In this document: positions 10,703-29,292 of the stretch, piece after piece
How positions within the stretch are numbered: position 1 is the first letter of the stretch
Layout of the letters: each line of letters begins with the position of its first letter
NCBI GenBank assembly: GCA_943354875.1
Contig: CALRDJ010000003.1
Span: 1-38,847, forward strand
Direction: 5' to 3'
From: Candidatus Levybacteria bacterium GW2011_GWA1_37_16
Lineage (GTDB): Bacteria; Patescibacteriota; Microgenomatia; Levybacterales; UBA12049
DNA: 38,847 nucleotides
Notes under the pieces: model-generated
Database searches by the model: none
Told to the model about the DNA's origin: nothing
The model's input: only the letters and a program-made list of their open reading frames with translations
Program-made: the position numbers and the translations under genes

Positions 10703-10703
10703 G

Positions 10704-11155: not shown

Positions 11156-11232
11156 ATGTGATAGTATACCAAAAATCACGCTCCCTGAAAAGAGCCGGAT
11201 GAGAAAAAAGGAAATTGACCTAGTTTTATCTC

Positions 11233-11262
11233 TTGACAAGAAGTTATCCACATCGTTAAACT
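11233..11262 (+). promoter_or_regulatory. dnaA promoter with a DnaA box in the spacer
   Basis: TTGACA 11233-11238, perfect TTATCCACA 11244-11252, TAAACT 11257-11262. Confidence 0.75.
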
Positions 11263-11309
11263 GCCTCTTACCACTAACTGCATTAGTATTATTTTTTAGA
11301 AAATCTTAT

Positions 11310-12653
11310 ATGGAAAAAGATCAAAAAAAACTCTGGGAAAATATCCTCGCAAGTCTTGAAACTGAAATTTCTCGAGCCAACTTCCTGACTCTTTTCAGAA
11401 ATACTTCTATTATTTCGCTCGACCAAGACTCAATTACCATTGCTGCGCAATCGTCTATGATTATCGATCTTATCCAAAAAAGATTCCTGGATACACTCAC
11501 TAAAACCATAGCGCAGCATGTCGGACATCCAGTACAAATTCTGTTTATTCCTAAAATAGTTTCTACTGTCCAGCCCGAGGACGATGATTCTCCGCTATTT
11601 GCTCAGGAGATCATAAGAACAAAATTACCCATTGGCCACCTCCCTCGTGTACGACCGGATTTTACCTTTCAAAACATTGCCGTATCATCAAGTAATCAGC
11701 TTGCATTCGTCTCCGCTACAACAGTTGCGAAAAACCCAGGATCCTCGTACAACCCGCTTTTCATTTATGGTCCTACCGGAGTAGGGAAGACCCATCTCAT
11801 GCAAGCGATTGCCAACGAAGTTTATTCCCAAGATCCAAATCGGAAAATAATTTATACAACGAGCGAGGAGTTTACGAATGAGGTGGTTGAGGCTATCAGA
11901 AGTAACCAAACACAAAACATGAAAAAGAGATTTCGCAACGCAGCGCTTCTTATCATTGATGACGTTCAGTTTCTCGCGGGGAAGGATAAAGTACAAGAAG
12001 AATTATTTCATACATTTAATATCCTCATGGATCATGGTGCACAAATCGTTCTCTCATCAGATCGCCCTCCACACGAAATTAAAAAACTAGAAGCGCGTTT
12101 ATCTTCTCGGTTTTCCGGAGGACTCACTGTCGACGTGGAAGAGCCAGACTTTGAGCTAAAAACCGCCATTCTACTCATCAAGGCGAAGAAGTTCGGGGTA
12201 GATCTACCCATAAATGTCGCCAAGATTATCGCAGAATCAGTTACGGATACGAGAACGCTTGAGGGAGTACTACTGCGAGTAATCACCGAGGCATCGTCCA
12301 TGGAAGGGGAGATCACCGAACAAATCGCTACTCGTGCATTGAACGGGAAAAAACCTGAACAAAATCATTTCCACGCAGACGATATCATCAAAAGCGTCTG
12401 TGAGTATTATGATGTAAAGCCCACGCAGATAAAAGGCCCCAAGCGTGATGCATCCCTAGTTCGAGCTCGACAAATAATTATGTACCTACTCAAGACTGAG
12501 CTAAAGCTTCCACTCGTCGAAATAGGAAACGCCCTTGGAGGTCGAGATCACACGACTATTATGTATGGTGTGGAAAAGATGGGAAAACTCGTACTAACAG
12601 ACGAGCGACTACATGAGGAAATCATGGGGATAACTAAAACGGTTCGGGGATAA
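11310..12653 (+). CDS. dnaA: chromosomal replication initiator DnaA
   Basis: YNPLFIYGPTGVGKTHL, LLIIDDVQF, QEELFHTFN, GGRDHTT. Start moved from 11043 to ATG 11310 (MEKDQKKLWENIL). Confidence 0.97.
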   Translation: MEKDQKKLWENILASLETEISRANFLTLFRNTSIISLDQDSITIAAQSSMIIDLIQKRFLDTLTKTIAQHVGHPVQILFIPKIVSTVQPEDDDSPLFAQEIIRTKLPIGHLPRVRPDFTFQNIAVSSSNQLAFVSATTVAKNPGSSYNPLFIYGPTGVGKTHLMQAIANEVYSQDPNRKIIYTTSEEFTNEVVEAIRSNQTQNMKKRFRNAALLIIDDVQFLAGKDKVQEELFHTFNILMDHGAQIVLSSDRPPHEIKKLEARLSSRFSGGLTVDVEEPDFELKTAILLIKAKKFGVDLPINVAKIIAESVTDTRTLEGVLLRVITEASSMEGEITEQIATRALNGKKPEQNHFHADDIIKSVCEYYDVKPTQIKGPKRDASLVRARQIIMYLLKTELKLPLVEIGNALGGRDHTTIMYGVEKMGKLVLTDERLHEEIMGITKTVRG

Positions 12654-12851
12654 CTTGTTAACAATATTTAAAACCTTTGTTATAAACATGTTATACCCAA
12701 AGTTTTCCACTAGTTTTCTACATTAAAACATCTATGTTTAGACTATTAATCCAACCACTCTTGTATTTCTCCACTTTTCCCTATACACTACTACAACAAC
12801 AAATAGAATTATCTAAAGACAAAGACCGAGTTATAAAAACCATATAAATAT
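12625..12851. other. replication origin oriC
   Basis: dnaA-dnaN spacer with degenerate DnaA boxes (TGGGGATAA 12625, CGGGGATAA 12645, TTATAAACA 12680, TTATACCCA 12691, TTTTCCACT 12703, TTTTCTACA 12714, TTCTCCACT 12767), a trio-like CTACTACAACAACAA at 12788-12802 and an AT-rich tail. Confidence 0.8.
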
Positions 12852-13970
12852 ATGAAAGTCTCGTTTTTATCAGAATCTATACAAAAAAGATTATCCCTCT
12901 TAAATCACGCAGTTTCTGCCAAAAGCCAACTACCGGTACTTTTAAACTTTCTTATAGAAACATCTGATGGGAAACTAAAAATTAGCGCTACTGATTTAGA
13001 AATAGGAATAGAAATATATATACCAACCACTATAGAGGAGGAGGGTGGAATTACTGTTCCCGCAAAAGTTTTTACTGAGCTCATCAACTCATTACCAGTA
13101 GGAAAGATAACTCTCCAAACAGAGGGTGGCTCACTAAAGGTAATCTCTTCTAGATCAGAGAGTATTTTTCAGACAATATCACAAGAGGATTTCCCAAAAC
13201 TCTATCAACAAAAGGGAGATAAGATAGCAGAGATTTCAGTTAAGGATCTTCATGACGAGTTTTTAAAAGTAGTATTCGCTGCAAGTCTCGATATAGCTCG
13301 TCCAGCATTGACTGGGGTACTTATGAAAAAAGAAGAGACAGGATTTCTTCTCGTAGCTACGGATGGCTATAGACTCTCACTTAAGCATTATAAGGCTGAG
13401 TCAGTCAGTAATTTAGAGAATGGCGCCTCATTTCTCATTCCCAGTAGGCTTATCAAGGAAGTTATAGGGTTGAAGGGGGAGGATGGGCCAGTTATTTTGT
13501 ATACTGCTAAGGAGAGTAATCAAGTGGTGTTTGAGCAAAAAGATGTACTGATAGTGGGTCGCTTGATCGAAGCAGAATTTCCGAGTTATGAACGTATTCT
13601 CCCTGAGGATTTTGCTACGAGAGTTATATTCGATAGGGGAGAGTTTCAATCTGCGGTAAAAACGAGTGCGATATTTGCGAGAGAAACTGCGAATATTATA
13701 AAAGTATCAGCACAGAAGGATAAATTGGTACTATCTGCGAATACCCCGTCTGTCGGGAGTAATTCTGTGGAAATAGAAGTGAAGCAATCAGGTGAGGAGA
13801 ATGAGATTGCGTTTAATGCTCGCTATGTACTTGACATGCTCTCTATTATTACTGAAAATGAAATGGTGTTTGAGATGACAGGACCATTAAACCCTGGAGT
13901 GTTTAAAATAGCAAGCGATCCTTCGTATCTTCATATAATCATGCCGATTCGTATACAAACAGAAAAGTAG
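12852..13970 (+). CDS. dnaN: DNA polymerase III beta clamp
   Basis: SATDLEI, VATDGYRL, GRLIEAEFPSY, IAFNARY, HIIMPIR. Confidence 0.97.
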   Translation: MKVSFLSESIQKRLSLLNHAVSAKSQLPVLLNFLIETSDGKLKISATDLEIGIEIYIPTTIEEEGGITVPAKVFTELINSLPVGKITLQTEGGSLKVISSRSESIFQTISQEDFPKLYQQKGDKIAEISVKDLHDEFLKVVFAASLDIARPALTGVLMKKEETGFLLVATDGYRLSLKHYKAESVSNLENGASFLIPSRLIKEVIGLKGEDGPVILYTAKESNQVVFEQKDVLIVGRLIEAEFPSYERILPEDFATRVIFDRGEFQSAVKTSAIFARETANIIKVSAQKDKLVLSANTPSVGSNSVEIEVKQSGEENEIAFNARYVLDMLSIITENEMVFEMTGPLNPGVFKIASDPSYLHIIMPIRIQTEK

Positions 13971-13983
13971 GGAGGTATTGAAT

Positions 13984-15142
13984 ATGCCAATTCCTTGGCA
14001 CGAGAATATCACGAGGAGACAGATAATTGGTACTTTTTTTATTACAAGCACCACTCCTAGCTTCTTGTGATTCATCTATGCCCCAAGCACCTCCTAGAGA
14101 AAAGGCTAGAAATATTCGCTCACCAGAACTTGAAGGCGTATTTTTGCCGGGCGATATATATCGACATAAAAATGGGTTTTATTTACCCAAGAATGGCGCT
14201 TACTACAAATTTGAACCAGAGGAATTTGAGCAGTACAAGAAGAATACGTTGTTTCAGGATTATGGAAGAAGAGCTTTTAATATCGATAGAATTTCCAGAA
14301 CAGTAGTACCAATTGGTGATATACAAGAGAACCAGATAGATAACACTGGAAACTTTAAGGTAGCCAAGCCACGTGGTGGAATAGATAATGCATTCTCCTC
14401 AGGATTTCTAGATGATGCGGTCGTTCTTCTACCCTATGACAGAATACTCCTCAATGAAACGTTTGAAACACTAAAACAGGAGTTGGGTGGATCGGGGTGG
14501 GATAGGGCTCTGGATACGGTACATTTTACTCATAGATTTGAAGACTCGGTTGTTAAGGAATATGAGTCGAAAGACACAGCGGTTTCCATACAGACAAGTT
14601 TTAAAAAAGCAGACGTGTTTATAGATAGGTTTGTTCGAGATCACCCACTGGTGCAGTTGAATGGCGTGGGACATAGTCTAGGTGGCTTGATCGTTTTACG
14701 AATGGCCATGAGGCATCCTGGTGTGTTTAATAGTGTTTCTGTTTTGGCGTGTCCTGCATATGGCATAGAGCCCACTGAGGAGATGGAGAAATTAATTACG
14801 GTGGTGCATGGACTTCTGAAAGCAAAAGGAATAGAAGAGGAATTGTCTCAGAGCCTGCTTGAGTTGTGGGGTGATGCGGATTACAGAAAAAAGCTCGACA
14901 CGTTTACGGAGAGCTTTACTAAAGCTGGGAGGAGACTAACAAGTGTTTTCGTGGAGAACGATAGAATCAGTACAAAGAAAAACGCCACACTTAAGGGAGC
15001 TGAAAATATTGAATTATCACGATCTAGTTTTTCAGACTCTATTACTGACCCGTTTGGCTTAAAGGCTCACGGGAGACCACTCAGAGAGCCTGCCTCTATA
15101 GAGGCGATTGTCAGAAGCATTGGAAAGAATCCGAGACTATAG
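13984..15142 (+). CDS. alpha/beta-hydrolase lipoprotein, apparently frameshifted at a T7 tract
   Basis: GHSLGG nucleophile elbow, C-terminal His, lipobox LLASC. GGAGGT RBS and ATG 13984 give MPIPWHENITRRQIIGT, which joins the 14027-15142 frame if one T of 14034-14040 is removed. Confidence 0.75.
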
Positions 15143-16798: not shown

Positions 16799-18805
16799 TT
16801 ATGGTGTTGCCGGTGACAAAGGTGATGGATTTGTAGTTGCGACTGGGGTAACAGGCGAGACTGGAAGCACAGGAATTGGCGCTGAGACAGGAGCCATAGG
16901 TGTCTGAGTGGGTGGTGCGGGTGGAGTGGGCGCAGCTGTGATGGGTTGAGCTACTGGTTCCTGACGCGCCATAGCCTGTTGACGGGCTAAAACTTCCTGA
17001 GGATTTGAGGTGATAAGCTCATGCTCAAAGGGCGCTGCGATAACCTTCATCGCCACATGGTTTTGTCCTGCGAAAAATAGTCCTTCTCCGATGTCGGCAG
17101 AAAGGAGAAGAGCTTTCTCTCCTTCTGAGAGAAAAAAGGTTTTCGTAATCATGTCCACCTCTGCGGCTCCCTGCTTTAGCAGGACTTGAATAGACGAGTT
17201 GGTGAGGACCGCCTTACCATAATCAGTAGAAAGGAAATCCTCTACGTCTTGGGTCGCTGTAGTGAGTCCCAGATAGTACTTACGAGCCCTCTTGGCTATG
17301 CTGTAAACGAATGATGCGCTGTCTTCATATTTCATCATGTACCACGCTTCGTCTAGAATAAGCAGTCTTTTTTTCAGTGTTTTTCGAACTCGTGTCCACA
17401 CGAAATCCAGAATTATATGCATGGCAATTGGTCGTAATTCTTCTTCGAGTCCTCGAATGGAGAAGACAGTAAATGGATTGGTAATATTGAAGTTAGACTG
17501 CTGATTAAAAATACCATTTAAGCTCCCCTTTATAAACTTTTCGAGTCGCAGTGCGAGTTCTTTGGCAGCAGGATCTTCTGTTCCCAGGAGTGTTTTGTAC
17601 AGGTCCTCCATAAGCGGTGCGGGTTGTTTTTGGGTCGCAGGATCTGTCGTAATGCCTTTTTGGCGATACGTCTCCATAAGCGCTCGATCTAATATGGCGT
17701 CGTGTGAGGCATCAAGTTCTCCCATAATGATGCGAAGGAGTCCGTGGAGAGAGAGGATTTTTAGTCCGAGCTCGTTTTCTCCTTCTTCATAGAGACCAGA
17801 CAGATCAAACGGATTGATCTTTATCGGAGAGTTGGAGGTAAATGATACATATTCTCCGCCAACAGTCTTGGCTAATGTTTCATATTCCCCTTCGGGGTCG
17901 ACTATGATCACCTCTGCGCCAAACATAAATTGTCGCATAGCCTCCAGTTTTATAAGAAATGATTTTCCAGAGCCTGATTTTCCGAGGACTACCTCGTTTG
18001 CGTTTTCCAGGGAAAATCGGTCAAAGATGACCAGTGAATTATTTTGCTGGTTAATACCATAGAGCACTCCTTTGTCTTGGGTCAGGGTGGCTGAGGTAAA
18101 TGGAAAAGTAGATGCGAGTGACGTCGTGTCCATATTTCGGGTGATAAAGAGCTTATCTTGTCCGGTAGGCACGGTGGATTTAAATCCTTCTTCCATTTGG
18201 AGTGTGGCTGTTTTGGCTGTCATGAGAAGTGATCCAAGCGTTGCCTGTAGTCTTCTCGTGGAATCTTCGAGGTCTCCATCGGTGTCGGCCGAAATAGTAA
18301 GGTACAGACTGAATTGGTAAAATCGTTCTACGCCCTTTGCTAGTTCTCCTTGGAGCGCAAGTGCGTCCTCCAGCGCTGCGGTGACTTTCGGATCCAAGAC
18401 TTGGTTGTGTTCGACCTGAGACGAGACGGTTGCTTCCATTTCTGCAATTTTTCGCCGTAAGTCTGAAAGGACATCGCTTGAGGTCGTAGGATAAATAAAC
18501 ATAGAGATATCCATGGTATGGTCAAAATCTATGATCGGCTGAAGCCAGTTCGCTGACACATATCGTGGATAGTCGACGACGAACAGCGTTTTAAAGAACT
18601 GTTCACCGACGCGAATAAAGCGAAAGTCTACTTCTATCGACGATGGTGCTATAACATCTGCCAGAGAAACCATGCCTTTTTCAAGAGCTGCGAGCTGTGT
18701 GGCTCCTTGGGCTGCTTGCTCAGTTGGCGACTTGGGCTTCAGTGTGCCCGGTTGGACATTCTCTGTCATGGTCGGCGTAGTTACTTTTTTGCCAAAGCCA
18801 AACAT
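16799..18805 (-). CDS. virB4: VirB4-family type IV secretion ATPase
   Basis: GVLYGIN, GKSGSGKS (Walker A), IVDPEGEY, INPFD, LILDEAW (Walker B), RARKY, ATQDVEDF. Confidence 0.9.
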   Translation of the reverse strand: MFGFGKKVTTPTMTENVQPGTLKPKSPTEQAAQGATQLAALEKGMVSLADVIAPSSIEVDFRFIRVGEQFFKTLFVVDYPRYVSANWLQPIIDFDHTMDISMFIYPTTSSDVLSDLRRKIAEMEATVSSQVEHNQVLDPKVTAALEDALALQGELAKGVERFYQFSLYLTISADTDGDLEDSTRRLQATLGSLLMTAKTATLQMEEGFKSTVPTGQDKLFITRNMDTTSLASTFPFTSATLTQDKGVLYGINQQNNSLVIFDRFSLENANEVVLGKSGSGKSFLIKLEAMRQFMFGAEVIIVDPEGEYETLAKTVGGEYVSFTSNSPIKINPFDLSGLYEEGENELGLKILSLHGLLRIIMGELDASHDAILDRALMETYRQKGITTDPATQKQPAPLMEDLYKTLLGTEDPAAKELALRLEKFIKGSLNGIFNQQSNFNITNPFTVFSIRGLEEELRPIAMHIILDFVWTRVRKTLKKRLLILDEAWYMMKYEDSASFVYSIAKRARKYYLGLTTATQDVEDFLSTDYGKAVLTNSSIQVLLKQGAAEVDMITKTFFLSEGEKALLLSADIGEGLFFAGQNHVAMKVIAAPFEHELITSNPQEVLARQQAMARQEPVAQPITAAPTPPAPPTQTPMAPVSAPIPVLPVSPVTPVATTNPSPLSPATP

Positions 18806-19479
18806 TACCTCGTCCCTCCTATAATTGCGGTATTTGTAGAAGCGCTTATTTGGTTGGATCCTAGAGGGTTATATACGTCATACAGGACTCGTGCTAAATC
18901 TTCTTTTTCTAGTACTTTTGCTCGCAAGCCAAGTCTTCCCAGCTGATTGAGTATTCCGTCAGCCTTCGTATGAAGAACAGTCTTAGCGCTCTCCATTTGG
19001 CTCGATCCGGAAGATTTTTTTACTGATGCCTGAACATTTGCCAATCCTTTTTCCAGCGGTGAGTAGGGAACTACGATATAAAAACTCTTATCCAGTACGG
19101 TGTTTACTTTTACGAGTTCTTGTACGAAATCACGGTAAAGTTTTATTTGTGCTATGAGAAGGCCATTTTGTACTTCGTTTAGCCCTGGATGCAGGAGTTG
19201 TGGGTTATTTATTTGATGCGTCAAATTATTTACATATGATGAGATATCTATTTTTTTATTTCGGATAACGAGCTGAATAGAAAAAGAGAGTGAATTGAGA
19301 AAGCTGGCATACCCATAGATTTTCGCATCTTGCTCATCTCGCGATAGGAGCGCGAAGTTAGTAGCTTGGACTTCGATGATAAGACAGCCATTCCCGTTTT
19401 TTAGCAGTACGACGTTTTCTGAGATGTCAGCAATTTCGGTGAACTTCTGTGTGGATCCTGATTTAGTTTTGTTTGGCAT
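18805..19479 (-). CDS. T4SS-associated protein (resembles the N-terminal region of VirB4/TraC)
   Basis: STQKF, NFALLSRDEQDAKIYGYASFLNSLSFSIQ, FYIVVPY; lies between prgI and virB4 with a TAATG overlap. Confidence 0.65.
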   Translation of the reverse strand: MPNKTKSGSTQKFTEIADISENVVLLKNGNGCLIIEVQATNFALLSRDEQDAKIYGYASFLNSLSFSIQLVIRNKKIDISSYVNNLTHQINNPQLLHPGLNEVQNGLLIAQIKLYRDFVQELVKVNTVLDKSFYIVVPYSPLEKGLANVQASVKKSSGSSQMESAKTVLHTKADGILNQLGRLGLRAKVLEKEDLARVLYDVYNPLGSNQISASTNTAIIGGTR

Positions 19480-19481
19480 GC

Positions 19482-20681
19482 TTAGGCACCGAATAAGTCC
19501 TTTCTGAGATCTTCACGCGCATCTGTTGAGATAATCTCAATGGGTTGGATAGGTTCTCCGACTGCATCTATTTGGATGAGATCAAATTTTTGTTTTCCAC
19601 CTGGATCCTCAAAAGCGAGTGTGTATGTTCCGTTCAGTAGTGAGGTGGCTGCGGCGAACTGGCCGAGCTGGTTGGTTTTAAATGCTCTGACTGGATTTCC
19701 TTCTTGGTCCTGCACTTCTACGAGAATATTTGGCAAAATATTTCCTCGGGAATCCTTTATGATTCCGACGAGTAGATTCGGTGCTTCAGGGGCAGTAGGG
19801 AGTCCGATTCGTACGCCCATTTCTTTCGTAATTTTCCGTACGTTTTGAGAAGGCGCTGGCGTATTTACTCCCTCAGAGGGAGTAAATACTGGTTGGGATT
19901 GACTGAGTTTTTTCGTCATAGACATAAGCTGTTTTTCCAGCTCTGCTTTTTGGGCCATAATCTCTTGGAGTTGTTTTTCAAGCGCTTGGGACTGTTCATG
20001 TGCCACCTCTGCTGTTTTTTGGTCAGTGACCTGTTCTGCAGCTTGGGCGTTTTGAAGCGCTTCAGCTACTTCGAGTGCCCGTTCTTCTAGAACTTTCTCT
20101 TCCTGTGGTACAGAAGGAGGAGGCGTGGCGGGCTGAGGTGCGATAACTACGGGTGTGGGCGCTATTACTATGGGAGCCGGTGCTTCTACGACTGGTTGCT
20201 CGGGTTGTAGTCGTGGGGCAGATAGATTCGTTACGTTTTGAAAAAACTTGAGTTCTTTTTCATCGAGTTTGTTTTGGGTCCTCGGTGTTTTCATTTTTGC
20301 TAAAATATCATCTATCGAGGTCAACTGAGTTTGTCCAGTCGAGTATGTCGAAGTAGATACGGGTGCAGGTATTTGGAAAATCGCTACTTCCCCGCCAATT
20401 TTTTCATAGAGATATCGCTCAGGAACGAATAGCGCTTTTATGAAATTTATAAGCATTATGTCCAGAGGTCTTCCCTCCACAGGCAGAAAGGCGAGTCCAG
20501 CTCCGAGACCCGCCGAAAAAATCATAAAAGGGAGTTTTATGAAAAGAGGGAGGGGAGATGAGAGGAAAAGCCAGGCGATGATGATGCCACCAGCCACATA
20601 TGCGAACTGCTTTATGGTCATATCGCCAATAAGCTTAAACTGGAACCCCGTTATGTCTTGTGGGATAGGATGGTTTTCCAT
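19482..20681 (-). CDS. PrgI-family protein with coiled coil and C-terminal beta-sandwich domain
   Basis: HPIPQDITGFQFKLIGDMTIKQF, two TM segments and GRPLD; Pro-rich linker; C-terminal GIIKDSRGNILPNILVEV...KTNQLGQF. Confidence 0.8.
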   Translation of the reverse strand: MENHPIPQDITGFQFKLIGDMTIKQFAYVAGGIIIAWLFLSSPLPLFIKLPFMIFSAGLGAGLAFLPVEGRPLDIMLINFIKALFVPERYLYEKIGGEVAIFQIPAPVSTSTYSTGQTQLTSIDDILAKMKTPRTQNKLDEKELKFFQNVTNLSAPRLQPEQPVVEAPAPIVIAPTPVVIAPQPATPPPSVPQEEKVLEERALEVAEALQNAQAAEQVTDQKTAEVAHEQSQALEKQLQEIMAQKAELEKQLMSMTKKLSQSQPVFTPSEGVNTPAPSQNVRKITKEMGVRIGLPTAPEAPNLLVGIIKDSRGNILPNILVEVQDQEGNPVRAFKTNQLGQFAAATSLLNGTYTLAFEDPGGKQKFDLIQIDAVGEPIQPIEIISTDAREDLRKDLFGA

Positions 20682-20688
20682 AGGCAGT

Positions 20689-20753
20689 TAGTCAGCATCT
20701 GAGTAATGCTAACTATGTGTAAGTAGCGTATAACGTGAAAATAATGTTTTCAA
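20689..20753 (-). promoter_or_regulatory. prgI-virB4 operon promoter and 5'UTR hairpin
   Basis: Minus strand TTGAAA (20753-20748), 17 nt, TACGCT (20730-20725); 10-bp stem 20689-20698/20706-20715 just before the ATG. Confidence 0.55.
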
Positions 20754-20784
20754 GATTATCAAACTGGGTCAAAAAATGAGGAAA

Positions 20785-20895
20785 TTAGCCTGCCCCGTGA
20801 AAAATCGCTCTTTAAGCCGTACTACGAATAGTAGATCCGCTCGAAGAAACTATTTGAGCGGATAAGGCGAGAAGCAAGATGAATGGGGAGGCTGG
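20785..20895 (+). ncRNA. unknown structured three-way-junction element, copy 1
   Basis: Homologous to 26634-26741; shared AATCGCTCTT, AGCCG, CTACGAATAGTAG, AAGGCGA, AAGATG; compensatory stem changes. Whether it acts as RNA or ssDNA is unknown. Confidence 0.55.
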
Positions 20896-20903
20896 CGTGA
20901 AAA

Positions 20904-21275
20904 TTAATTACGAGGTTTCTTTTTCGATGCTCTTATTTCTTTAATAATCAGCTCCATAGCTTTTCGTGCTATGCCTAGGTCTACTGATTCAGACTGTTTG
21001 ACGGCTACACCTTGCATTTCTTTCTCTATTTCTTGTTCGACTCGGAGATAAAATTCTTTATCAAGCTTCTCTTTTCCTTCACCAGCTTTTACCATGGCTT
21101 CCTGTGTTTTTTCCTCTAGAGCACCCTTATAGATAGCAAAGTAGGTGTCCCAGAGTATCTGCTGAATCACGAGTTTTTGATCATCATCCAGTTGCTCAAA
21201 GAGATCGAGTAGGTCTGTTTTAAATCCTTCTTCGAAAGGAAGGATTTTTATAATGCTTCTGGTCGTTAGTGTCAT
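20904..21275 (-). CDS. hypothetical acidic helical protein
   Basis: 123-aa ORF, ATGA-coupled to the upstream 842-aa gene. Confidence 0.75.
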   Translation of the reverse strand: MTLTTRSIIKILPFEEGFKTDLLDLFEQLDDDQKLVIQQILWDTYFAIYKGALEEKTQEAMVKAGEGKEKLDKEFYLRVEQEIEKEMQGVAVKQSESVDLGIARKAMELIIKEIRASKKKPRN

Positions 21276-23800
21276 AATGCGTTCACCTCGTTCGCTAGTT
21301 GATTAATCATATCTCGAAAACCCGTATAGAGCTGGGGGTAGGAAATATTGCGTGTAACAGCTATGTGTCCATTTATCTGGTCGAGTGCATCCTTCATGGT
21401 GAATGGTGCTGTTAGGCCTAAATTAAACGCGTTATGCATGCGCTCAGCTAGCTGTTCTGGAGGGAATACCTTATGGAGTTTCTGGAATTCCGCTCCGCGA
21501 TTTGGCGTGTCCTGGTAGTTGAATAGTAGGTTTAGTGTTTCGTAATAACCTCTTGGTGCGTTGACTGTTCGTTCTTGTTCGGAGTAGGTATTGTTTGTCG
21601 CTCCTATATCGACAGAATCGGTAAAAGTAGCTATAGAGTCTGGTATCTGTACCGCTTTTGTAAATATTTCTCCTTGGCGAGTGGGGTTTAGGAGTCTATC
21701 GGTTAACTCTATTATTCCTTTTGTGTTCTCCGTGGTTTCATCTGCGGATTTCACGATTTTATTCTGTACCTCTATCTGCTGGTCAAGATCTTTGATTTGT
21801 ACATCGAGCGATGTCTGATATCGGATGCGGAGTTTTTTACGAGCCTCTGTCTGGGCATGTTGTAAGGCCTCCAGGTTGCTTGTTGTAAACGCAGGATCTG
21901 TGCTCCATCTGTAGGGTGGATTGTGTAGTAGATTTGTGAGCTGTGCATCGGACATAGTGAATAGGTCGTTTGCATTAAGCGTTCCGCCGCCGACAGCAGG
22001 ATTTACGATCTGGTTATACACGTCCACTTGGACTACTGGGCTAATATCATATATTTCAATCTGTCGTGCCTCATGCTCGGATTTAGCGCGAAGAATTGTT
22101 TTGCGAAGCTCTGCTTTCTCTTCAGGCGTGGTGTTGCTTATGCTATATGGTGGATTTGTGGCTAGTACGACGAGCTCGTCAAATGTCTTACTCCCTAGTT
22201 CAGCAGGGGTAATGGTGGGAGCGCCCCCTGCAGGAGCGACAAGATCGTCATATGCCTTCTGAGTTTCGCTTAGTTCTTTTGGTAGATTTTCTAAGGTTGC
22301 ACTTTCTGTCTCCTGTTGAGTTTTTATAGCTTCTTGAGACGCGTCTTTTAGCTCCGTTAGTTTCTGTATTCTATCATCTCTATCCTTTATTTCTTTAGAG
22401 AGTTGGTCTTTTTCTGGATGCTGTAAATTAGCTCGTTCTGTCGCTATAGCTTTTACATCTGCATTGTCAACAGAGCCTGTCGTAGTCCCAAGTGCAGCTG
22501 CTCTCCTTCTCGATACGTCTTCAAACTCTGTTTTGTATACATCCAGCCAGTTTCTTCTTGCCTCTGTGTGCTGCTTGCTTAGGCTGTCTCCTCCATTATA
22601 AGCGGTGTTGAGTTCATCTTTTAACCTAGTAATCTCCGTATCTATGGTTGTTGGGATATCTGTAATAATGGTGAGTTTAAATTCTTCTCGGAGCGTTCTC
22701 TCAATTTTTTTAGGGGCCTCCTGTGTAGTGGCGAACACTTTTAGTGGGGTTTTTTTACCCGCTGTTTCTGTCTTGGTAGTATCTAAGGCCTCAATTTTCT
22801 TTCTAGCTTCTTTGGCTCGGTTTCCTGCGGCAGTGTTTGTCTCCTGACCATCTTTTTTAGTCGCAATTGAGCTCCTGATAGCCTTTACTGATTCTAGGCC
22901 AATGCCATCTCTTGAGGGATCGCCTTTCATCAGTACACCTATGGATTCTACCGCTTTTTTCACATATACGTCCTGTTCTGCTTTGCGAAATCTTCGGAGA
23001 TTGCCTATTGTGTCAAGATTATCGTAGTCAGGCGTTGCTCCAGGCATGGCCAATCCTAGTGGGCCGACGCAGAAAAGGGGACTGTCAGCTGTATTATTCC
23101 AAATATCTCTCACGCCACTTCTGTTGGCATCAAATTGGTCTATTATGGTTTTTTCCCACCGAGCTTCAGATTGCTGAAAACCAGTTGTAGTAAGTGTATT
23201 TCGCAGAATTACATCTGCTGGTGTTGACTCAAGGCTTTTCAGAGGCAGGCCGATATCTGCATAAAGACTACGGAGCGCAGTGATTCCTTGTCGTATCTCA
23301 TCTCGTACGGTGTTTGCATTTCGAGTCGTTTCTACGGCTATTCTTCCTGGTATTTTCTCAATGAGATTCGTAGTTGGGTTTACTTGTAGGCTATCGAGAT
23401 CCATGCCTGTCATGGCTTGAAAGTATTCTTTTTCTGCGGGATTTGCTTTCATGGCAGTGAAGAGTTCAGGTCTGAGAGTTATGGATAGTTCTGTGCCACG
23501 TCTGTGGAAGGACTGGACTGCTCGGTGCACGCCATATCCAGCCGCTCCTACTACTGCTGCAATTCCCCCTGCCATAGCACCACCTGCTGGCGATTGAGTC
23601 GCGATGGCGTTAAGCCCTCCTAGGGTAGGAGGAGCCATGATGGCACCAGCTGTGGTGACGATTCGTCTGAGATTGGGCTGTAGGGTGTCGTACCAGAAGG
23701 CACGTACTGTGCCACGATCGCTACCATGAACGACTACTCCCTGAGCTGCGATAACTCGGGGCTCCTGAGGGTCGATTTGTGTCTTAAGACCTAACCCCAT
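21272..23800 (-). CDS. large hypothetical protein (Gly/Ala-rich hydrophobic segment, coiled coils, internal NPPY repeat)
   Basis: 842-aa ORF; may be the 3' part of a gene split from 23791-24204. Confidence 0.75.
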   Translation of the reverse strand: MGLGLKTQIDPQEPRVIAAQGVVVHGSDRGTVRAFWYDTLQPNLRRIVTTAGAIMAPPTLGGLNAIATQSPAGGAMAGGIAAVVGAAGYGVHRAVQSFHRRGTELSITLRPELFTAMKANPAEKEYFQAMTGMDLDSLQVNPTTNLIEKIPGRIAVETTRNANTVRDEIRQGITALRSLYADIGLPLKSLESTPADVILRNTLTTTGFQQSEARWEKTIIDQFDANRSGVRDIWNNTADSPLFCVGPLGLAMPGATPDYDNLDTIGNLRRFRKAEQDVYVKKAVESIGVLMKGDPSRDGIGLESVKAIRSSIATKKDGQETNTAAGNRAKEARKKIEALDTTKTETAGKKTPLKVFATTQEAPKKIERTLREEFKLTIITDIPTTIDTEITRLKDELNTAYNGGDSLSKQHTEARRNWLDVYKTEFEDVSRRRAAALGTTTGSVDNADVKAIATERANLQHPEKDQLSKEIKDRDDRIQKLTELKDASQEAIKTQQETESATLENLPKELSETQKAYDDLVAPAGGAPTITPAELGSKTFDELVVLATNPPYSISNTTPEEKAELRKTILRAKSEHEARQIEIYDISPVVQVDVYNQIVNPAVGGGTLNANDLFTMSDAQLTNLLHNPPYRWSTDPAFTTSNLEALQHAQTEARKKLRIRYQTSLDVQIKDLDQQIEVQNKIVKSADETTENTKGIIELTDRLLNPTRQGEIFTKAVQIPDSIATFTDSVDIGATNNTYSEQERTVNAPRGYYETLNLLFNYQDTPNRGAEFQKLHKVFPPEQLAERMHNAFNLGLTAPFTMKDALDQINGHIAVTRNISYPQLYTGFRDMINQLANEVNAL

Positions 23801-24204
23801 GCCTGATCGTTGTCGAAGTATTTTTCTATTTTTCCCGCATCCGGCTTTCCATCCGTAGTCAATGCATCGTAGAGCATTAAATCCACTCTGGCGTTTTCAT
23901 TGCCTCTAAGTCTTGGTAATACTTGTGAGACCTGTGTCAGATAATCTTCTAGAAAGTGGGTGATTTTATTCTCAGTCTCTTTACTAATAGTTACTTTTTT
24001 CGGCTGAGATTCTGTTTCTCTGTTTCCGACTATATCGGTACCGGTATCAATTCCCAGCTTGAAATCACGTTCATTAAATGTGCGCTTCGCATCGCGTGCT
24101 TTAGCTTCCTCGTTCGCTTTTGTTTGAAGGGCTACGTTCGGTGCGGGCGCGATTCTTCTTTGTTGAATCCTTTGTGCGAGAACATCGGGCGACTGAATAG
24201 CCAT
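23791..24204 (-). CDS. hypothetical protein
   Basis: 137-aa ORF overlapping the next ORF by 10 nt; divergent from 24257. Confidence 0.65.
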   Translation of the reverse strand: MAIQSPDVLAQRIQQRRIAPAPNVALQTKANEEAKARDAKRTFNERDFKLGIDTGTDIVGNRETESQPKKVTISKETENKITHFLEDYLTQVSQVLPRLRGNENARVDLMLYDALTTDGKPDAGKIEKYFDNDQAWG

Positions 24205-24256
24205 ATAAGAAAATAGTAGTTGATGTAGGTTTTTATTTCAAGTATGCTCATTATAT

Positions 24257-25780
24257 ATGGGACCAGAAGGATCAGTAGCGCCACCACCAGAAGCGCGACC
24301 AAAGGCTCCACGACGACCAAAACCAGTATCTCCTGTAAAGCCTGCTGAAGCAGGTGTTTCTTCTGTAGTGCAAACAGAACCTCAAGTATCATCAAAAATT
24401 ACAACAGAGGCTCGGGATTTGTTAAGTAAGCTTAGTCAGGAAGGCACTGTGCCTGCTTTTATAACAGCAAATTTTCAAAGAATATTACAAGAAAACGGAG
24501 TAGCCCAAGAGGATATTAACAAGATGAGGCCAGAAGAAGCGGCAGATTGGTTGAGAAACAAAGCAAAAGCAGAAGATGAACAACCAGAATCTGGTACGCC
24601 CGCTGAGCCAGCAGATGCTACGGAGCCGACAGATGCGTCCGTGGAGAAACCTGTTGATAATAGACAGCGCTTGGAAGATCTCCGGGGAGCAAGTGATGTG
24701 GCATTGACCACAAGAGTTAGAGCGCTAAATAGCGAGTTGGGGAGAATGACTGATGAAGAATACAGAAGCGCAGTAGATGAAAATCGAGGCATAAATGTGC
24801 TTTTGACCTTAGATGATATTCGAAACGGAAAAGAGATTCAGGGAAAACTGGAGGGAGTGAAAACTGCTGAAGGCGTAGTAGTTGTCACGAATATTGCGAG
24901 CGGAGAAGAGAGCAGTGCGGTTTGTGTGATTGAGGGAAGAGCTGAGACGATGTCTATTTCTCGAGGTGCACTGGTAGATGCGCAGTTGCTTTCAGAGGCA
25001 GATGCCATGCGATCACAATTCCCAGATCCAACTAGTCCCGAGAGGATTGTGTTAGAGGCCAGAATTTCAGTCCTGCAGAATGGAGAAGAAGGTTTGCCGA
25101 CGGGAGATACGCCTATCGGAGCTGCTGTGGATGCAGCAGTAGGAAAAGTATTCGATGCAGAGTCGGCGGTGGGTATGGAGGCAGGGCTTTTGGAGTACCA
25201 TGCTGGAGCGTTAGAGCAGAAAATTCAGCAACTCCAAAAAGAAAAAAAGCCGAGAAGTATCGAGGACGAGCGACTTTTAGCGCTTTTGCGTTTAGGGCAG
25301 CTAGCGAGGGGAGAAGGGGCAGTATTTGTGCGTTCTCGAGCGATAACGATGTTAAGAGAGCGAAAAGTTGAAATACCTGAGCCTGTAGTTGCGGCATTGA
25401 ATAAGCAGTTGGGTGAAGCAAGGCCCGCGCTGGACACTCTTCTTAGATCGCTTAAGCTCAAGGATGGCGGAAAGCTTACCGATGAACAGATAGGTAAATT
25501 TAAGGATATTGTTAATCGTATTGGAATTGATCATATGCTTGCTACGGGAGGACTTGAGCCATTATTGGGTGAGGGTGGCGTAGCGCAGGTGGGTGAATTT
25601 ATTTTTGGCGATACACCAGATTCAGATATAAATGCGCAGTTAGGGAATTTATTAGCAGACAAAACATTGCTTGAAAAATATGGTGGAAAAGCGAAAAAGG
25701 GAGGATTACTTTTTCTCGTTATGATTGCTTTAGCTTCAGGAATGGTTATAAAAGACGCTGCGAGTACTGGACGTCACTAA
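24257..25780 (+). CDS. hypothetical protein with C-terminal membrane anchor
   Basis: 507 aa; Pro/Glu-rich N-terminus; single hydrophobic tail GGLLFLVMIALASGMVI. Confidence 0.8.
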   Translation: MGPEGSVAPPPEARPKAPRRPKPVSPVKPAEAGVSSVVQTEPQVSSKITTEARDLLSKLSQEGTVPAFITANFQRILQENGVAQEDINKMRPEEAADWLRNKAKAEDEQPESGTPAEPADATEPTDASVEKPVDNRQRLEDLRGASDVALTTRVRALNSELGRMTDEEYRSAVDENRGINVLLTLDDIRNGKEIQGKLEGVKTAEGVVVVTNIASGEESSAVCVIEGRAETMSISRGALVDAQLLSEADAMRSQFPDPTSPERIVLEARISVLQNGEEGLPTGDTPIGAAVDAAVGKVFDAESAVGMEAGLLEYHAGALEQKIQQLQKEKKPRSIEDERLLALLRLGQLARGEGAVFVRSRAITMLRERKVEIPEPVVAALNKQLGEARPALDTLLRSLKLKDGGKLTDEQIGKFKDIVNRIGIDHMLATGGLEPLLGEGGVAQVGEFIFGDTPDSDINAQLGNLLADKTLLEKYGGKAKKGGLLFLVMIALASGMVIKDAASTGRH

Positions 25781-25781
25781 A

Positions 25782-26102
25782 CTATTTACAGTTATCAAAG
25801 CCGAATTGCTTTATGCAGTCAGTTCCCGTAAGTCCTGAGATGAAATTTACTATGAAAAACGATATAAGTATTATAACCAGTCCTATGACTGCGTAGGTGA
25901 GGGTGTTTCTAGCCGAGTCGGCTTGTTTCGGGTCTCCACCAGCAGAGATGTACTTATAGCCCGCGTAGAGTATCATGAACACTGCTACGATCCCAGAAAA
26001 TATTAATAGACCATTCACTACGTTTTGAAATACTGCGGGAATGCACTTCAGGGTGGCCACGCCATTTACTACACAGTCTTTTACTATAATATTCCAATCC
26101 AT
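25782..26102 (-). CDS. VirB2/TrbC-like T4SS pilin
   Basis: Two TM helices around GYKYISAGGDPKQADSARNTLTYAVIGL. Confidence 0.8.
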   Translation of the reverse strand: MDWNIIVKDCVVNGVATLKCIPAVFQNVVNGLLIFSGIVAVFMILYAGYKYISAGGDPKQADSARNTLTYAVIGLVIILISFFIVNFISGLTGTDCIKQFGFDNCK

Positions 26103-26157
26103 ATATTAAGCGTAGCAAAGAAAAAGAGGTAAGTAAAGGGAATTATGGTGAAACAAC

Positions 26158-26574
26158 CTAGTAACCAGGAGCACCAGGGCGAAGGACAGGGATTTGGAGG
26201 TCGGTTAAGCTGACTCCGAATATGCCTCCAATGAATTGGATGATAAAGAATGCGAGAAGAGCGATAACGAGCCCTACGATGGCTGCCACTATGTGATTTC
26301 GTGCTGCGTCCACTGCTGCTTTATCGCCACCTGAAGTAATCCATTTGATGCCCCCATAAATAAGGAAGAAAAGTGCTGCTACAACTGCTACGATAATGAG
26401 AATAGTAATAAGGCGTGATATGAGGCCACCTAACGAGCCAAAATTAAAAGTACAAAGTAGATTAGCAGTTCTTTGATCGCCTCCGCATAAATTAACCGTA
26501 CTCTGTGCAAATGCTGGAGCTGCATAGGAGAGATAAGAGAGAAATCCTGTGGTTATGCCGATAGCTTTTTTCAT
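26158..26574 (-). CDS. VirB2/TrbC-like T4SS pilin with signal peptide
   Basis: Signal peptide ending PAFA; GGIKWITSGGDKAAVDAARNHIVAAIVGL. Confidence 0.82.
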   Translation of the reverse strand: MKKAIGITTGFLSYLSYAAPAFAQSTVNLCGGDQRTANLLCTFNFGSLGGLISRLITILIIVAVVAALFFLIYGGIKWITSGGDKAAVDAARNHIVAAIVGLVIALLAFFIIQFIGGIFGVSLTDLQIPVLRPGAPGY

Positions 26575-26633
26575 TAATCTAATCTAATAACATTTCACTA
26601 TCCTTGTCAAGCCCCTATTCTCTTTGGGGCGTA

Positions 26634-26741
26634 GACCCCTCAACAATCGCTCTTCGAGCCGCGCTACGAATAGTAGGCCTGCCCGAAATGCTTCGCATAT
26701 CGAAGCGGGCGGGTAAGGCGAAAAGTAAGATGTGTGGGGTC
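26634..26741 (+). ncRNA. unknown structured three-way-junction element, copy 2
   Basis: Closed by GACCCC/GGGGTC; homologous to 20785-20895. Confidence 0.55.
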
Positions 26742-26757
26742 AAGGAGTAAATTCCCC

Positions 26758-27116
26758 TGTCATCCTGAACTTGTTTCAGGATCTCCCTTTCGTCATTGCG
26801 ATCCCGATCTAATCGGGAGAAGCAATCTCATTGTCATTCTGGAGTCCGCCGAAGGCGAGACGATAGAATCTCTTTCTCTCCTCGTTACTTTTTCCGAGGA
26901 AAAGTAACACAAAAACTCTTTTGCACTAAGCCTCCACCTAAAAATACTCCGTTCTCTTATCGGGGGATTGTCCTCCCCCTTCAGCAGTTCGCTGGATTCT
27001 CCCTGATAGCTCACTCCATATTTTTTTAACGGTGACTTCTTAAAGCAAAAGAAAGGGAGACCGCATATAGTTCTGCTATAGACACTGGGAGATCCTGAAA
27101 CAAGTTCAGGATGACA
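26758..27116. mobile_element. MITE/REP-like composite element with perfect 30-bp terminal inverted repeats
   Basis: TGTCATCCTGAACTTGTTTCAGGATCTCCC at 26758-26787 and its exact reverse complement at 27087-27116; further GTCAT...ATCTC palindromes at 26791-26829 and 26832-26872. Confidence 0.7.
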
Positions 27117-27157
27117 CCGATGACACCGATGACAACGAGGAGAGAGGAGAGGGATCG

Positions 27158-27505
27158 TTATGGGGTTCCTTGGGATAAGTCTACTCCAAACAATCCTCCT
27201 ATGAATTGGACGATAAAGAGCGCGAGAAGACCGATTATAAGTCCGATGATGCTGTAGGTGAGGCGATTGCGTGCTGTCTGGAGTGCTTGTTTATCTCCGC
27301 CTGATATAGTCCACTGAATACCACTGTAGATAAGAGAGAAAAGCGCTGCGATGATGACCACGATTATAAATACGGTAATACCGCGCTGGATGATGGCTTG
27401 GCCGGCTCCGCCAGCTTCAAGCCCGCCGGTGGGGATTCCTGTGGGAGCCTGAATGACTACAGGTGTTCCATTCGAACCCGGAATTGATAATGATAGTAAT
27501 CTCAT
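27158..27505 (-). CDS. VirB2/TrbC-like T4SS pilin
   Basis: GIQWTISGGDKQALQTARNRLTYSIIGL between two TM helices. Confidence 0.8.
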   Translation of the reverse strand: MRLLSLSIPGSNGTPVVIQAPTGIPTGGLEAGGAGQAIIQRGITVFIIVVIIAALFSLIYSGIQWTISGGDKQALQTARNRLTYSIIGLIIGLLALFIVQFIGGLFGVDLSQGTP

Positions 27506-27510
27506 CGTTT

Positions 27511-27537
27511 GAATTATGAATAAAGAATTATGAATTA
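27511..27537. repeat. 7-nt repeat array (GAATTAT type), 3' flank of four-helix-bundle gene 1
   Basis: GAATTAT GAATAAA GAATTAT GAATTA; overlaps the stop codon. Confidence 0.75.
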
Positions 27538-27923
27538 CGTGATTTAGAGCTTCGTATAAGTCCGTTTGTTATTTTATGAACAATTATCGCTTGTTCTGCA
27601 AGTTTATCATAGTTTTCTTCTGAAATGAAGCCAACGTCCCTGGCAACTAATAGTTGATTTTGAAGTTCAGTAATTGACCCGAGAGATATTGAATAAAACT
27701 GTGTTTTTTCTTTGTAAGATTGTCTGCTAAAGCCTTCCGCAATATTCGAGGTTATGGATATGGCGCATCTTCTCATCTGGCTAACTAGGCCGAAAAGCTC
27801 TTCTTTGGGAAATGTTCCCGTAGTCGAATAAACCATCAAGACTAATTTATGTCCTTCTTTCCAAGCATTCAAATCATGGAATGTCCTAATCCTGCTTTCC
27901 GTAATTCTTAATTCATGCGTCAT
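27528..27923 (-). CDS. four helix bundle protein (23S rRNA intervening-sequence protein family)
   Basis: FHDLNAW, FPKEELFGLVSQMRR, SITSNIAEG, GSITELQNQL. ATG 27923 avoids overlap with the upstream gene. Confidence 0.9.
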   Translation of the reverse strand: MTHELRITESRIRTFHDLNAWKEGHKLVLMVYSTTGTFPKEELFGLVSQMRRCAISITSNIAEGFSRQSYKEKTQFYSISLGSITELQNQLLVARDVGFISEENYDKLAEQAIIVHKITNGLIRSSKSRNS

Positions 27924-27930
27924 AATTCTT
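27886..27930. repeat. inverted 7-nt repeat array (TAATTC type), 5' flank of four-helix-bundle gene 1
   Basis: GTAATTC TTAATTC ATGCGTC ATAATTC at 27901-27928 plus weaker upstream units; complementary to 27511-27537. Confidence 0.65.
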
Positions 27931-27936
27931 GCGAGA

Positions 27937-29292
27937 TCACTTTCCAAATCCCGGGATTTTTAGGATGTCTACTCCTACTACTTGGAGGATGACGAGGGCA
28001 AAGATCATAAACAGAAGTCCGATGACAGCAGAGGTGAGTGTCTCTCGTGCTGCTTTTAGTTTTTCAGGGTCTCCCTGAGAGGTCATAAATCGATAGCCAG
28101 TAGCGATAATTATGAGAAGGAGTATTCCCCCTGCTAGGCTTAGGATGATGGAGAAGATTTTTTTTACAAAATCAGCGGGATTTGTATCGATATCGCCTAT
28201 GGCCGTATTTACCTTCTTGCATTGATAGGTTTTTCCTCCCCATATATCTTTTCCTTCAACCAGGCTATTTTCTGCGCAAGGAAGCTTCATGGTTTGAGGT
28301 CTGGCTGGATCTGGGAGCTTGAAGTCTCCGGCGTTGGCTCTGGAGCATTGAGCTGTTCCTGGCGCAGGGGGTCCGGGGGTAAAGTTTAAGAGGATGCCAT
28401 TTGTATCGCAGTGGGTGGTGGCTATAGAGAGCCCTGAAACTTTATTAAGGCCTAAGGTAAATACAGTGAGGACTACATTTGCTACATCTCCTACATATGT
28501 AGGTCCGTTGCTGAGGACTGTACTCATCTTTTCTATGCAGAACTTTTTACTGCCTACCTCATCTGTCGAGTTTGCAGGGATGGGAAATTCATCGAATATC
28601 GTCTGATTTTTTTTAGTAGTAAATGCTGGTTGGGCAAAGACACCTCCTTCCCACCACCACCAGTAAGTGGTTTCGGGAGATAGATTAGTGATTCGTGAAA
28701 CTTGAGCTACTGTTCCTGCTTGGAAGGTGCATGCATTTTGGGTTACGACGTCTATTTTCGGTAGCGTGGCTTGTGATGCAGTGGGTTTTTTTTTACCAAC
28801 TTGTATGGTAGTTTCGCCAAGAAAGTATTTTTTATCAGTACATTTGCGTATATCAGTAGTCTTACATATGGCTATGGTCCATGGTTGATCTGGGAATTCA
28901 TCTCCAGTAACAAATGATCGTATTCCCGTAAGTCTTTCATGCAACGGCCCTATTAAGCTAATGTCAGTGGTTAATTTGGTAGCAGAAGATGGGGTAACCC
29001 AATGATGGTCAGGTTGACGCGTGACTAATATTCCGCCGCCTTCTTTAAAAAAATTTTCAGGAAACCCTCCAATCTTTGGGTAGGCAAGGACATAATAAGA
29101 TCCTGCAAACGAGCAGTCAGGGTCGCCAGAAATGGTAATACTCATGGTTCCGCTAAAGGTTGCTGGTAGTGGATCGTTGCCAAATAAAGTGTCTGTTGTG
29201 AGAGTGCAGGCGGCATGTGCTGTCGAAGGAGTGCTCAGGAATGTGGAGATTACGAAAAATAACGATAGTACGACAGGCAGAAATCTTCTCAC
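27937..29292 (-). CDS. large exported Cys-containing domain fused to a C-terminal VirB2/TrbC-like pilin
   Basis: Signal peptide (VRRFLPVVLSLFF...TAHA) from GTG 29292; C-terminal VNTAIGDI...GYRFMTSQGDPEKLKAARETLTSAVIGL. Confidence 0.75.
   Translation of the reverse strand: MRRFLPVVLSLFFVISTFLSTPSTAHAACTLTTDTLFGNDPLPATFSGTMSITISGDPDCSFAGSYYVLAYPKIGGFPENFFKEGGGILVTRQPDHHWVTPSSATKLTTDISLIGPLHERLTGIRSFVTGDEFPDQPWTIAICKTTDIRKCTDKKYFLGETTIQVGKKKPTASQATLPKIDVVTQNACTFQAGTVAQVSRITNLSPETTYWWWWEGGVFAQPAFTTKKNQTIFDEFPIPANSTDEVGSKKFCIEKMSTVLSNGPTYVGDVANVVLTVFTLGLNKVSGLSIATTHCDTNGILLNFTPGPPAPGTAQCSRANAGDFKLPDPARPQTMKLPCAENSLVEGKDIWGGKTYQCKKVNTAIGDIDTNPADFVKKIFSIILSLAGGILLLIIIATGYRFMTSQGDPEKLKAARETLTSAVIGLLFMIFALVILQVVGVDILKIPGFGK

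Follow-up and report, generated by a model that had tools for sequence, protein, structure and literature searches.

Two folded segments on the forward strand of the window, that is the whole stretch of 38,847 nucleotides analysed here, are probably (at a rough probability of 0.6) old, diverged copies of a non-autonomous, fold-dependent insertion element that resembles REP sequences and MITEs and has atypical junctions. The element is inserted DNA and lies between genes. The inserted unit consists of a variable leader of 9-62 nt, a conserved hairpin core of 69 nt and an optional extra arm. The target is duplicated over a variable length of about 5 to 30 nt; on the 3' side the core runs straight into this duplication, and the leader lies on the 5' side. 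An earlier note on this DNA had offered a mobile repeat as one of two explanations for the folds, and direct support for it now comes from sites that are filled in some genomes and empty in their sisters, as well as from duplications that flank the inserts.

The two copies in the window and their shared core

Two copies of one fold had been proposed for the + strand, and both were recovered there as diverged copies at 20793-20888 and 26635-26739. The helices named at that time (CCCC/GGGG as the outer stem, ATC/GAT, CTT(T)/(G)AAG, GCC/GGC, the CTAC-GAATA-GTAG hairpin and a variable arm) are also those that RNAfold predicts on its own, with -47.8 kcal/mol and a z-score of -6.47 for copy 1 and with -46.3 kcal/mol and a z-score of -3.59 for copy 2, and for each copy 0 of 200 shuffles folded equally well. 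On the - strand the fold energies are -36.1 (copy 1) and -40.9 kcal/mol (copy 2), in agreement with the suggested preference for the + strand. Covariation in the variable arm was likewise borne out by an alignment of both copies, which differ at four pairs, two of them double-sided (T-A to C-G) and two single-sided, giving G-T. The features are listed below, with bit scores from cmsearch for two covariance models, R1, built from the two window copies, and R2, rebuilt from 31 matches.

20793..20888, + strand: copy 1, long form (115.1 bits with R1, 74.7 bits with R2; RNAfold)
20793-20796/20885-20888, + strand: helix P1 of copy 1
20804-20806/20878-20880, + strand: helix P2 of copy 1
20810-20813/20871-20874, + strand: helix P3 of copy 1
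20816-20818/20866-20868, + strand: helix P4 of copy 1
20822-20825/20831-20834, + strand: helix P5 of copy 1, with the GAATA loop at 20826-20830
20835-20842/20856-20863, + strand: extra arm P6 of copy 1
20786..20895, + strand: copy-specific outer extension of P1 in copy 1, in which about 20786-20791 pairs with 20889-20894, enclosing the copy (MFE structure)
26635..26739, + strand: copy 2, long form, with a two-part 38-nt arm at 26677-26714 (124 bits with R1, 84.1 bits with R2; RNAfold)
26611..26634, + strand: leader of copy 2, in which GTAG comes after a small hairpin, GCCCC...GGGGC (26611-26630)
16799-18805, - strand: VirB4/TraG-type ATPase gene of a T4SS-like cluster
19482-20681, - strand: PrgI-family gene of the same cluster
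25782-26102, 26158-26574 and 27158-27505, - strand: T4SS pilin genes of the same cluster

Both copies lie between - strand genes of the T4SS-like cluster. Their placement next to minus-strand promoters, as the earlier note had it, applies to copy 2, which adjoins a promoter-like site at 26610-26581 on the - strand, but not to the prgI side, where the promoter scan returned none. The placement to the right of the origin of replication is correct for these two copies, with dnaA at 11043-12653, dnaN at 12852-13970 and a turn of the GC skew near 12 kb. In the origin region (window 10500-14000) yidC and a KH/R3H (Jag-like) gene are located on the - strand and dnaA and dnaN on the + strand; the cumulative GC skew has its minimum near 12 kb, and to its right, transcription of the whole T4SS-like cluster opposes replication. 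Between the two element copies lies an ORF of 507 amino acids without a Pfam match (24257-25780, +), which is the sole + strand gene within the - strand cluster. The window further carries two genes of the 23S_rRNA_IVP/bAvd-like four-helix family, at 27528-27947 (-) and 29451-29813 (+), as well as a gene of the Fic/DOC family at 35649-36047 (-) and one for an RNase H (RVT_3-type) at 6322-6738 (-). A different repeat has its arms at 26758-26785 and 27089-27116, about 305 nt apart in the window; in contigs from four lake metagenomes the same arms are joined just 3-9 letters apart, at summed depths of up to about 155, which suggests a different and highly abundant palindromic element that here has an insert. 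The many contig joints seen at 26784-27090 come from that repeat.

Across homologues the core forms a rod of 69 nt, which is built from five short helices with conserved internal loops and ends in a GAAUA pentaloop. The outer helix has 6-7 pairs, with CC/GG near-invariant, and is followed by a small loop, a helix of 3-4 pairs and a loop of 2x2 to 3x3 (GC.. / ..AA). Closer to the tip are a helix of 4-5 pairs, a tandem G-A pair, GCC/GGC and the junction, and the apical helix of 3-6 pairs is capped by GAAUA. This common form measures 67-71 nt in 47 of 57 aligned copies, while the form with the extra arm, of 81-107 nt, accounts for the other 10, and hence the three-way junction by which the element had initially been defined is a minority shape. 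The covariation first claimed from two copies extends to the 57 distinct homologues, in which 98.4% of cells are paired and 14 of the 17 model pairs have double-sided changes, although the alignment was fitted to the model and these pairing and covariation figures are therefore flattered. In the controls, 0 of 500 shuffles were as good, and sliding the partners by 1-3 columns reduced the paired fraction to 30-44%. The folding strand is fixed: G-U outnumbers A-C in core pairs by 15 to 3, and in all 58 cases the forward strand folds more stably than its reverse. The unpaired bases are near-invariant across the class in the same 57-copy alignment, and the tandem G-A pair is replaced by Watson-Crick pairs in four copies (L020, L033, L059 and L061).

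Several sequences accompany the core. A leader of the kind found at copy 2 also stands 5' of at least eight other copies (L006, L009, L010, L017, L023, L031, L072 and L079). Directly 5' of many short-form cores a second conserved hairpin was observed, with arms AGAAACTCTTAA... / ...TTAGAGTTTCT and a small inner hairpin (L013, L016, L024, L025, L026, L029, L032, L035, L038, L040, L081 and L109, the last in G000 C23); on the opposite strand a ribosome-binding site and a gene start come directly after it, and it seems to travel with the core. At L076 (G193:C1:3171-3474) three element copies are arranged in tandem on one strand, each preceded by a hairpin-forming spacer of 48 nt, and a spacer of this type also precedes the copy downstream of rpsI (L008).

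Distribution and gene context

An exact motif pattern derived from both window copies had 0 matches in 60 relatives, so that covariance models were needed. The wider search with a model of both copies, which the earlier note had recommended, returned matches for R1 in 80 of 151 genomes from the family of the window. R2 matched 72 of 151 genomes of the same class, under at least 30 family labels and with 1-27 matches each, and in a phylum-wide sample it matched 0 of 143 genomes of other classes under strict filters. In the genome of the window itself R2 finds four copies instead of the two first reported. A 28-mer from the apical part has exact matches in 111 stretches of genome_contigs; among the 80 matches listed, the record titles name Gottesmanbacteria in 15 cases, Levybacteria in 6, Microgenomates in 3, Roizmanbacteria in 2, Blackburnbacteria and Paceibacterota in 1 each, a "Patescibacteria group" in 19 and "uncultured Gammaproteobacteria" in 33. 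The last 33 contigs, titled "uncultured Gammaproteobacteria bacterium", are third-party MAGs, and in view of where the element otherwise occurs, their titles seem to be placeholders or mislabels. The same 28-mer had 0 exact matches in viral contigs. By record titles, the host range thus comprises Microgenomates-type lineages (Levy-, Gottesman-, Roizman- and Blackburnbacteria), which amounts to one class of Patescibacteria in the samples searched. Divergence among copies is as great inside one genome as between genomes, which indicates that most of them are old but counts against the reading as an insertion element.

The neighbours of the element are unrelated housekeeping genes, among them topA, dprA, dnaX, ybaB, holB, gyrB, secA, serS, metK, rho, lon, mgtE, rpsI, rplJ/rplL, groES/groEL, rpoC/rpsL and smpB, in addition to the leaders of 16S genes. 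One of the 16S leader copies adjoins a further 23S_rRNA_IVP/bAvd-like gene (L014, 1765-2124). Among 58 rows, two of which (L021 and L041) represent one place, 20 copies are antisense and 15 sense within co-directional gene pairs, 10 lie between divergent and 4 between convergent genes, and the others are found at contig ends. No copy was located inside a gene among about 85 with mapped neighbouring ORFs, where, on crude ORF calls, overlap is confined to gene ends; for rplJ in G221 and for the gene at the G000 C23 copy, the element supplies at most the last codons and the stop. Copies often lie no more than 35 nt from a stop codon or adjoin a -35 box or a ribosome-binding site. The rule that the element marks the lagging-strand template does not hold, since elements occur on both the G-rich and the C-rich strand in five long contigs. 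In G193:C10, for instance, the + strand leads throughout (GC3 skew positive), and five elements are on the + and six on the - strand.

Filled and empty sites

The insertion itself is best seen where sister genomes can be compared. In the pilB-holB spacer the filled site of G118 reads as a 12-nt repeat, a 25-nt leader, a 91-nt core and the 12-nt repeat again, while three genomes of the same genus (G173, G014 and G152) are empty, with the region of the 12-mer present once and no element. The rplJ-rplL spacer is filled in G289 (148 nt) and G221 (118 nt), in each case by a reverse-complemented core and a second hairpin, and the insert is flanked by short repeats of the ribosome-binding region; the spacer is empty in five sister genomes, where it measures 20-37 nt, and in G189 the genes overlap (G255 was left out). 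None of 30 further rplL loci carries the element. At the end of gyrB, G229 and G270 are filled and have an imperfect repeat of the gene end (about 22-25 nt), while four genomes are empty, and the groES-groEL spacer is filled in G209 and G289 and likewise empty in four. Both the groES-groEL and the gyrB junction are filled in two genera with compensatory differences.

Two further loci were noted in this comparison. The gyrB end of G314 (L282) holds two tandem units with a different mini-hairpin of 20 nt instead of the element, and each unit consists of a complement of the gyrB end, the mini-hairpin and a copy of the last ~25 nt of gyrB; the layout is that of the filled sites, except that the core is a different one and far smaller. 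At L065 and L066 (G276) the element adjoins a tRNA gene, the 17-nt 3' end of which is repeated after the core, while the leader holds its complement; the two contigs share their left side and diverge after the repeat.

Exact flanking repeats of at least 10 nt were found at 9 of 168 unique copies, compared with a mean of 0.2% and a maximum of 1.8% in 200 permutations. By contrast, 152 of the 168 copies have a flanking duplication of less than 8 nt, which counts against reading them as insertion elements. Six repeats are perfect, with lengths of 30, 20, 17, 15, 14 and 12 nt; the downstream repeat begins 0-3 nt from the 3' end of the core in 6 of 6, and between the upstream repeat and the core lies a leader of 9-62 nt. 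Altogether, duplications of ~5, 7, 9, 12, 14, 15, 17, 20, ~24 (imperfect) and 30 nt were seen, and the duplicated sequences are unrelated from site to site. For the two copies in the window the following repeats were found by repeat search.

20734..20742, + strand: CGTGAAAAT, 9-nt direct repeat upstream of copy 1, with a leader of about 50 nt between repeat and core
20896..20904, + strand: CGTGAAAAT downstream of copy 1, directly after the outer stem and overlapping the stop codon of a - strand ORF (20904-21275)
26606..26611, + strand: GTCAAG upstream of copy 2, part of the - strand TTGACA -35-like box of the pilin gene 26158-26574
26739..26744, + strand: GTCAAG downstream of copy 2, abutting the 3' end of the core

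The CGTGAAAAT pair is a possible target duplication of copy 1, which is tentative because a copy of CGTGAAAAT matching at 8 of 9 positions also lies inside the element (20796-20804). The sequence TCAAG(G) also follows directly after the core in L006, L009, L010, L012, L017 and L023. For the sites of the window itself, a search of metagenomes with the prgI-like protein found no empty allele and reached distant relatives only, whose best segments were mostly 37-52% identical, with one short segment at 66%. Contigs of four DNA runs aligned to window 19400-27600 had no joint across either copy, which is uninformative on empty alleles, as rare variants drop out of contigs.

Alternative explanations and relation to known elements

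Under the preferred reading of an insertion element, copying would require the folding of one particular strand, which may explain why the same strand keeps its G-U pairs, tandem G-A pairs and invariant loops whatever the direction of transcription or replication, and a trans-acting, structure-specific factor would presumably recognise the fold. Next to prgI and the pilin gene, the copies would then be lineage-specific insertions, and effects on these genes, such as insulation or a block of read-through upstream of their promoters, would be secondary. Such an element is comparable to MITEs (Correia, ERIC/IRU, RUP and BOX), which are also non-autonomous, hairpin-forming and intergenic, measure ~70-150 nt, duplicate their target and in some cases lie beside promoters. 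In contrast to MITEs, the length of the duplication is variable (5-30 nt), the 5' and 3' junctions are dissimilar, conservation reaches far beyond species and genus, and no parent IS was found in searches for Y1_Tnp and RVT_1. The outer helix does constitute an inverted repeat, but the inserted unit extends past it with the leader. The palindromic elements of Rickettsia (RPEs) are similar in being structured palindromic insertions in a reduced genome with no known transposase. RPEs are often found in frame inside genes, whereas the ~85 mapped copies of the present element are intergenic. With the attC sites of integrons the element has in common that structure is kept more than stem sequence, that a terminal arm is variable and that unpaired bases are strand-specific; attC sites are recognised as folded single strands, as the element would be. 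It appears to differ from them in that inspection of the alignments by eye revealed no RYYYAAC/GTTRRRY boxes, the copies are mostly solitary and point in both directions, one-direction arrays and a cassette ORF are lacking, and the interior is conserved in sequence.

Since the loop bases are kept throughout the class, the main rival is a functional structured RNA, either a new self-cleaving ribozyme or a protein-binding RNA module, that rides on mobile DNA, which is regarded as possible but unlikely. Near-invariance of unpaired bases across a whole class is indeed more typical of functional RNA than of selfish DNA, and the GNRA-like GAAUA pentaloop, the swap of the tandem G-A pairs for Watson-Crick pairs in the four copies, the excess of G-U over A-C and the optional conserved arm at one junction point in the same direction. 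Dispersed ribozymes (twister, hammerhead, pistol and hatchet) are likewise small, occur several times per genome without a fixed gene context, and combine conserved bases in loops and junctions with variable stems and optional arms. Such an RNA would be new, because it has no match in Rfam: a cmscan of the whole window against Rfam 15 at gathering thresholds, a check proposed in the earlier note, yielded tRNA only; at E<=10 both copies returned only noise of at most 15.7 bits, beside the element, and at E<=1 nothing was found at the element in 20 homologous loci of the short form. Nor did a literature search of sources outside subscription journals return a published description of such an element in Patescibacteria. 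The lack of an Rfam match also sets the element apart from the dispersed ribozymes, as do its many copies in places where no sense transcript is expected. Against an RNA function, the flanks contain no conserved promoter or terminator at a fixed distance, there is no gene association, and 20 of the 58 rows are antisense inside co-directional pairs such as rplJ-rplL, groES-groEL and rpoC-rpsL, where they score like sense copies (~79 versus 76 bits, R2 averages over a sample of top hits). A nut-like boxA/boxB site was considered separately and rejected, as the boxA-like bases (GCUCUUUA-type) take part in pairs that show compensatory replacement (GCAG..., GAAG...) in L049, L051 and some copies from G193 and G276, and the orientation to genes is also variable.

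A more speculative idea, to which a low probability is given, is that the core represents the business end of a new bacterial mobile element that has no transposase from any known family. It would be copied into staggered breaks, starting at its exact 3' end, and the long target duplications of variable length would result from this. This could occur via target-primed copying of a small structured, perhaps self-processing, RNA, as a counterpart of SINEs or retrozymes, or via hairpin-triggered template switching during replication or the uptake of foreign single strands. Eukaryotic SINE-type retroposons are similar to the element in their variable target duplications, their exact 3' junction (0-3 nt overlap) and variable 5' side, and their small structured RNA-like core; to our knowledge, none has been described in bacteria. 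The element departs from SINEs in that no A-tail or internal promoter is known and no reverse transcriptase tracks it. Co-occurrence with a reverse transcriptase was ruled out, as RVT_1 is equally common with and without the element (16 of 72 versus 16 of 79 genomes), and it is absent from G193, which has 27 copies, and from G079, G008 and G195. For 2 of 2 leaders tested, no donor copy with the same leader was found in the same genome.

Distinctly improbable is a REP-like element that is moved as single-stranded DNA by a Y1 (RAYT or IS200-type) HUH transposase acting in trans. The hairpin with irregularities on one defined strand would suit such an enzyme, and Y1_Tnp-like frames of ~220-260 amino acids are present in 101 of 151 genomes of the class and coincide to some degree with the element, in that 58 genomes have both, 14 only the element, 43 only Y1 and 36 neither, although related genomes are not independent in this count. 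Y1 is, however, as common in classes that lack the element (67 of 143 genomes, all without it), and it is absent from G000, G079 and G224, with 4-8 element copies each; the genome of the window has four copies and no Y1_Tnp match. A REPtron layout was ruled out, since no repeats flank a Y1 gene in inverted orientation, and the nearest pairs of element and Y1 are 0.8-2.4 kb apart in only two genomes (G193 and G209), with an ORF in between in G193. Y1_Tnp (IS200/RAYT-type) frames were also observed in 70 of 151 genomes sampled across the phylum, and over the class and phylum samples a single genome has up to 19 of them; many of 220-260 amino acids match only profile positions ~25-121, and ten matches in G263 have identical scores. 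Searches for an enzyme covered Y1_Tnp and RVT_1, and within these no transposase or other enzyme was linked to the element.

REP/BIME sequences with their RAYTs (the REPtrons of proteobacteria) are alike in being imperfect palindromes that occur in many copies outside genes, at gene ends, point either way and have a strand-specific fold, and many genomes with the element also contain Y1-type genes. REPs are about 20-40 nt long and consist of a palindrome with a conserved 5' GTAG tetranucleotide. The GTAG within the core of the present element is only the 3' strand of the apical helix, so that it does not conform to this definition, and it further differs from REPtrons in its 69-nt core of five helices, its loops that are invariant class-wide, its 1-27 copies, its target duplications and its position away from Y1 genes. 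Enzymes of the Y1 (IS200/IS605) type make no target duplication and insert 3' of a fixed short target, whereas recent copies of the element are flanked by 9-30-nt duplications whose sequences are unrelated between sites, unlike palindromes derived from IS200/IS605.

There is also little probability that the element is a hairpin that serves the host and was kept by selection after insertion, as a terminator, an insulator, a stabiliser of mRNA 3' ends or a translation spacer. Consistent with such a role, the element often lies 0-35 nt past a stop codon (that of the upstream gene in 14 of 28 convergent and 6 of 21 co-directional cases), its outer stem resembles a Shine-Dalgarno sequence (GGAGG) and lies 10-23 nt before a start codon in 9 of 27 cases, and the groES-groEL and gyrB junctions stay filled in two genera. 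Yet the hairpin is not followed by a U-tract, several copies come after a classical terminator and not in its place, and sister genomes do without the element. The role would moreover have to work both ways round, while only one strand stays well folded. Finally, a regulatory or origin-of-transfer-like signal of the T4SS-like/pilin locus is extremely improbable: both window copies do lie upstream of - strand genes of this locus, and copy 2 adjoins a -35-like box, but a link to T4SS genes and their promoters gains no support elsewhere, as a prgI-like gene is present in 131 of 151 genomes of the family and 0 of 29 orthologous prgI loci have the element upstream (two weak matches are located elsewhere), only 1 of 80 prgI loci in metagenomes has a copy, ~950 nt away, and the other copies adjoin unrelated genes.

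Patescibacteria have tiny genomes and are thought to be poor in selfish DNA. One class of this phylum nonetheless keeps a deeply conserved, folded element of 69 nt that is still inserting at gene boundaries, including the rplJ-rplL, groES-groEL and rpoC-rpsL spacers and the 16S leader. Its junctions, with long variable duplications and with one exact and one ragged end, match no standard transposition scheme, and together with the lack of a linked enzyme in the searches made, they may point to an unrecognised form of DNA mobility or to a new structured RNA. The covariance model guards against misreading the element as a locus-specific riboswitch or regulator, accounts for differences in spacer length among related genomes and provides a marker of recent genome change in uncultured lineages.
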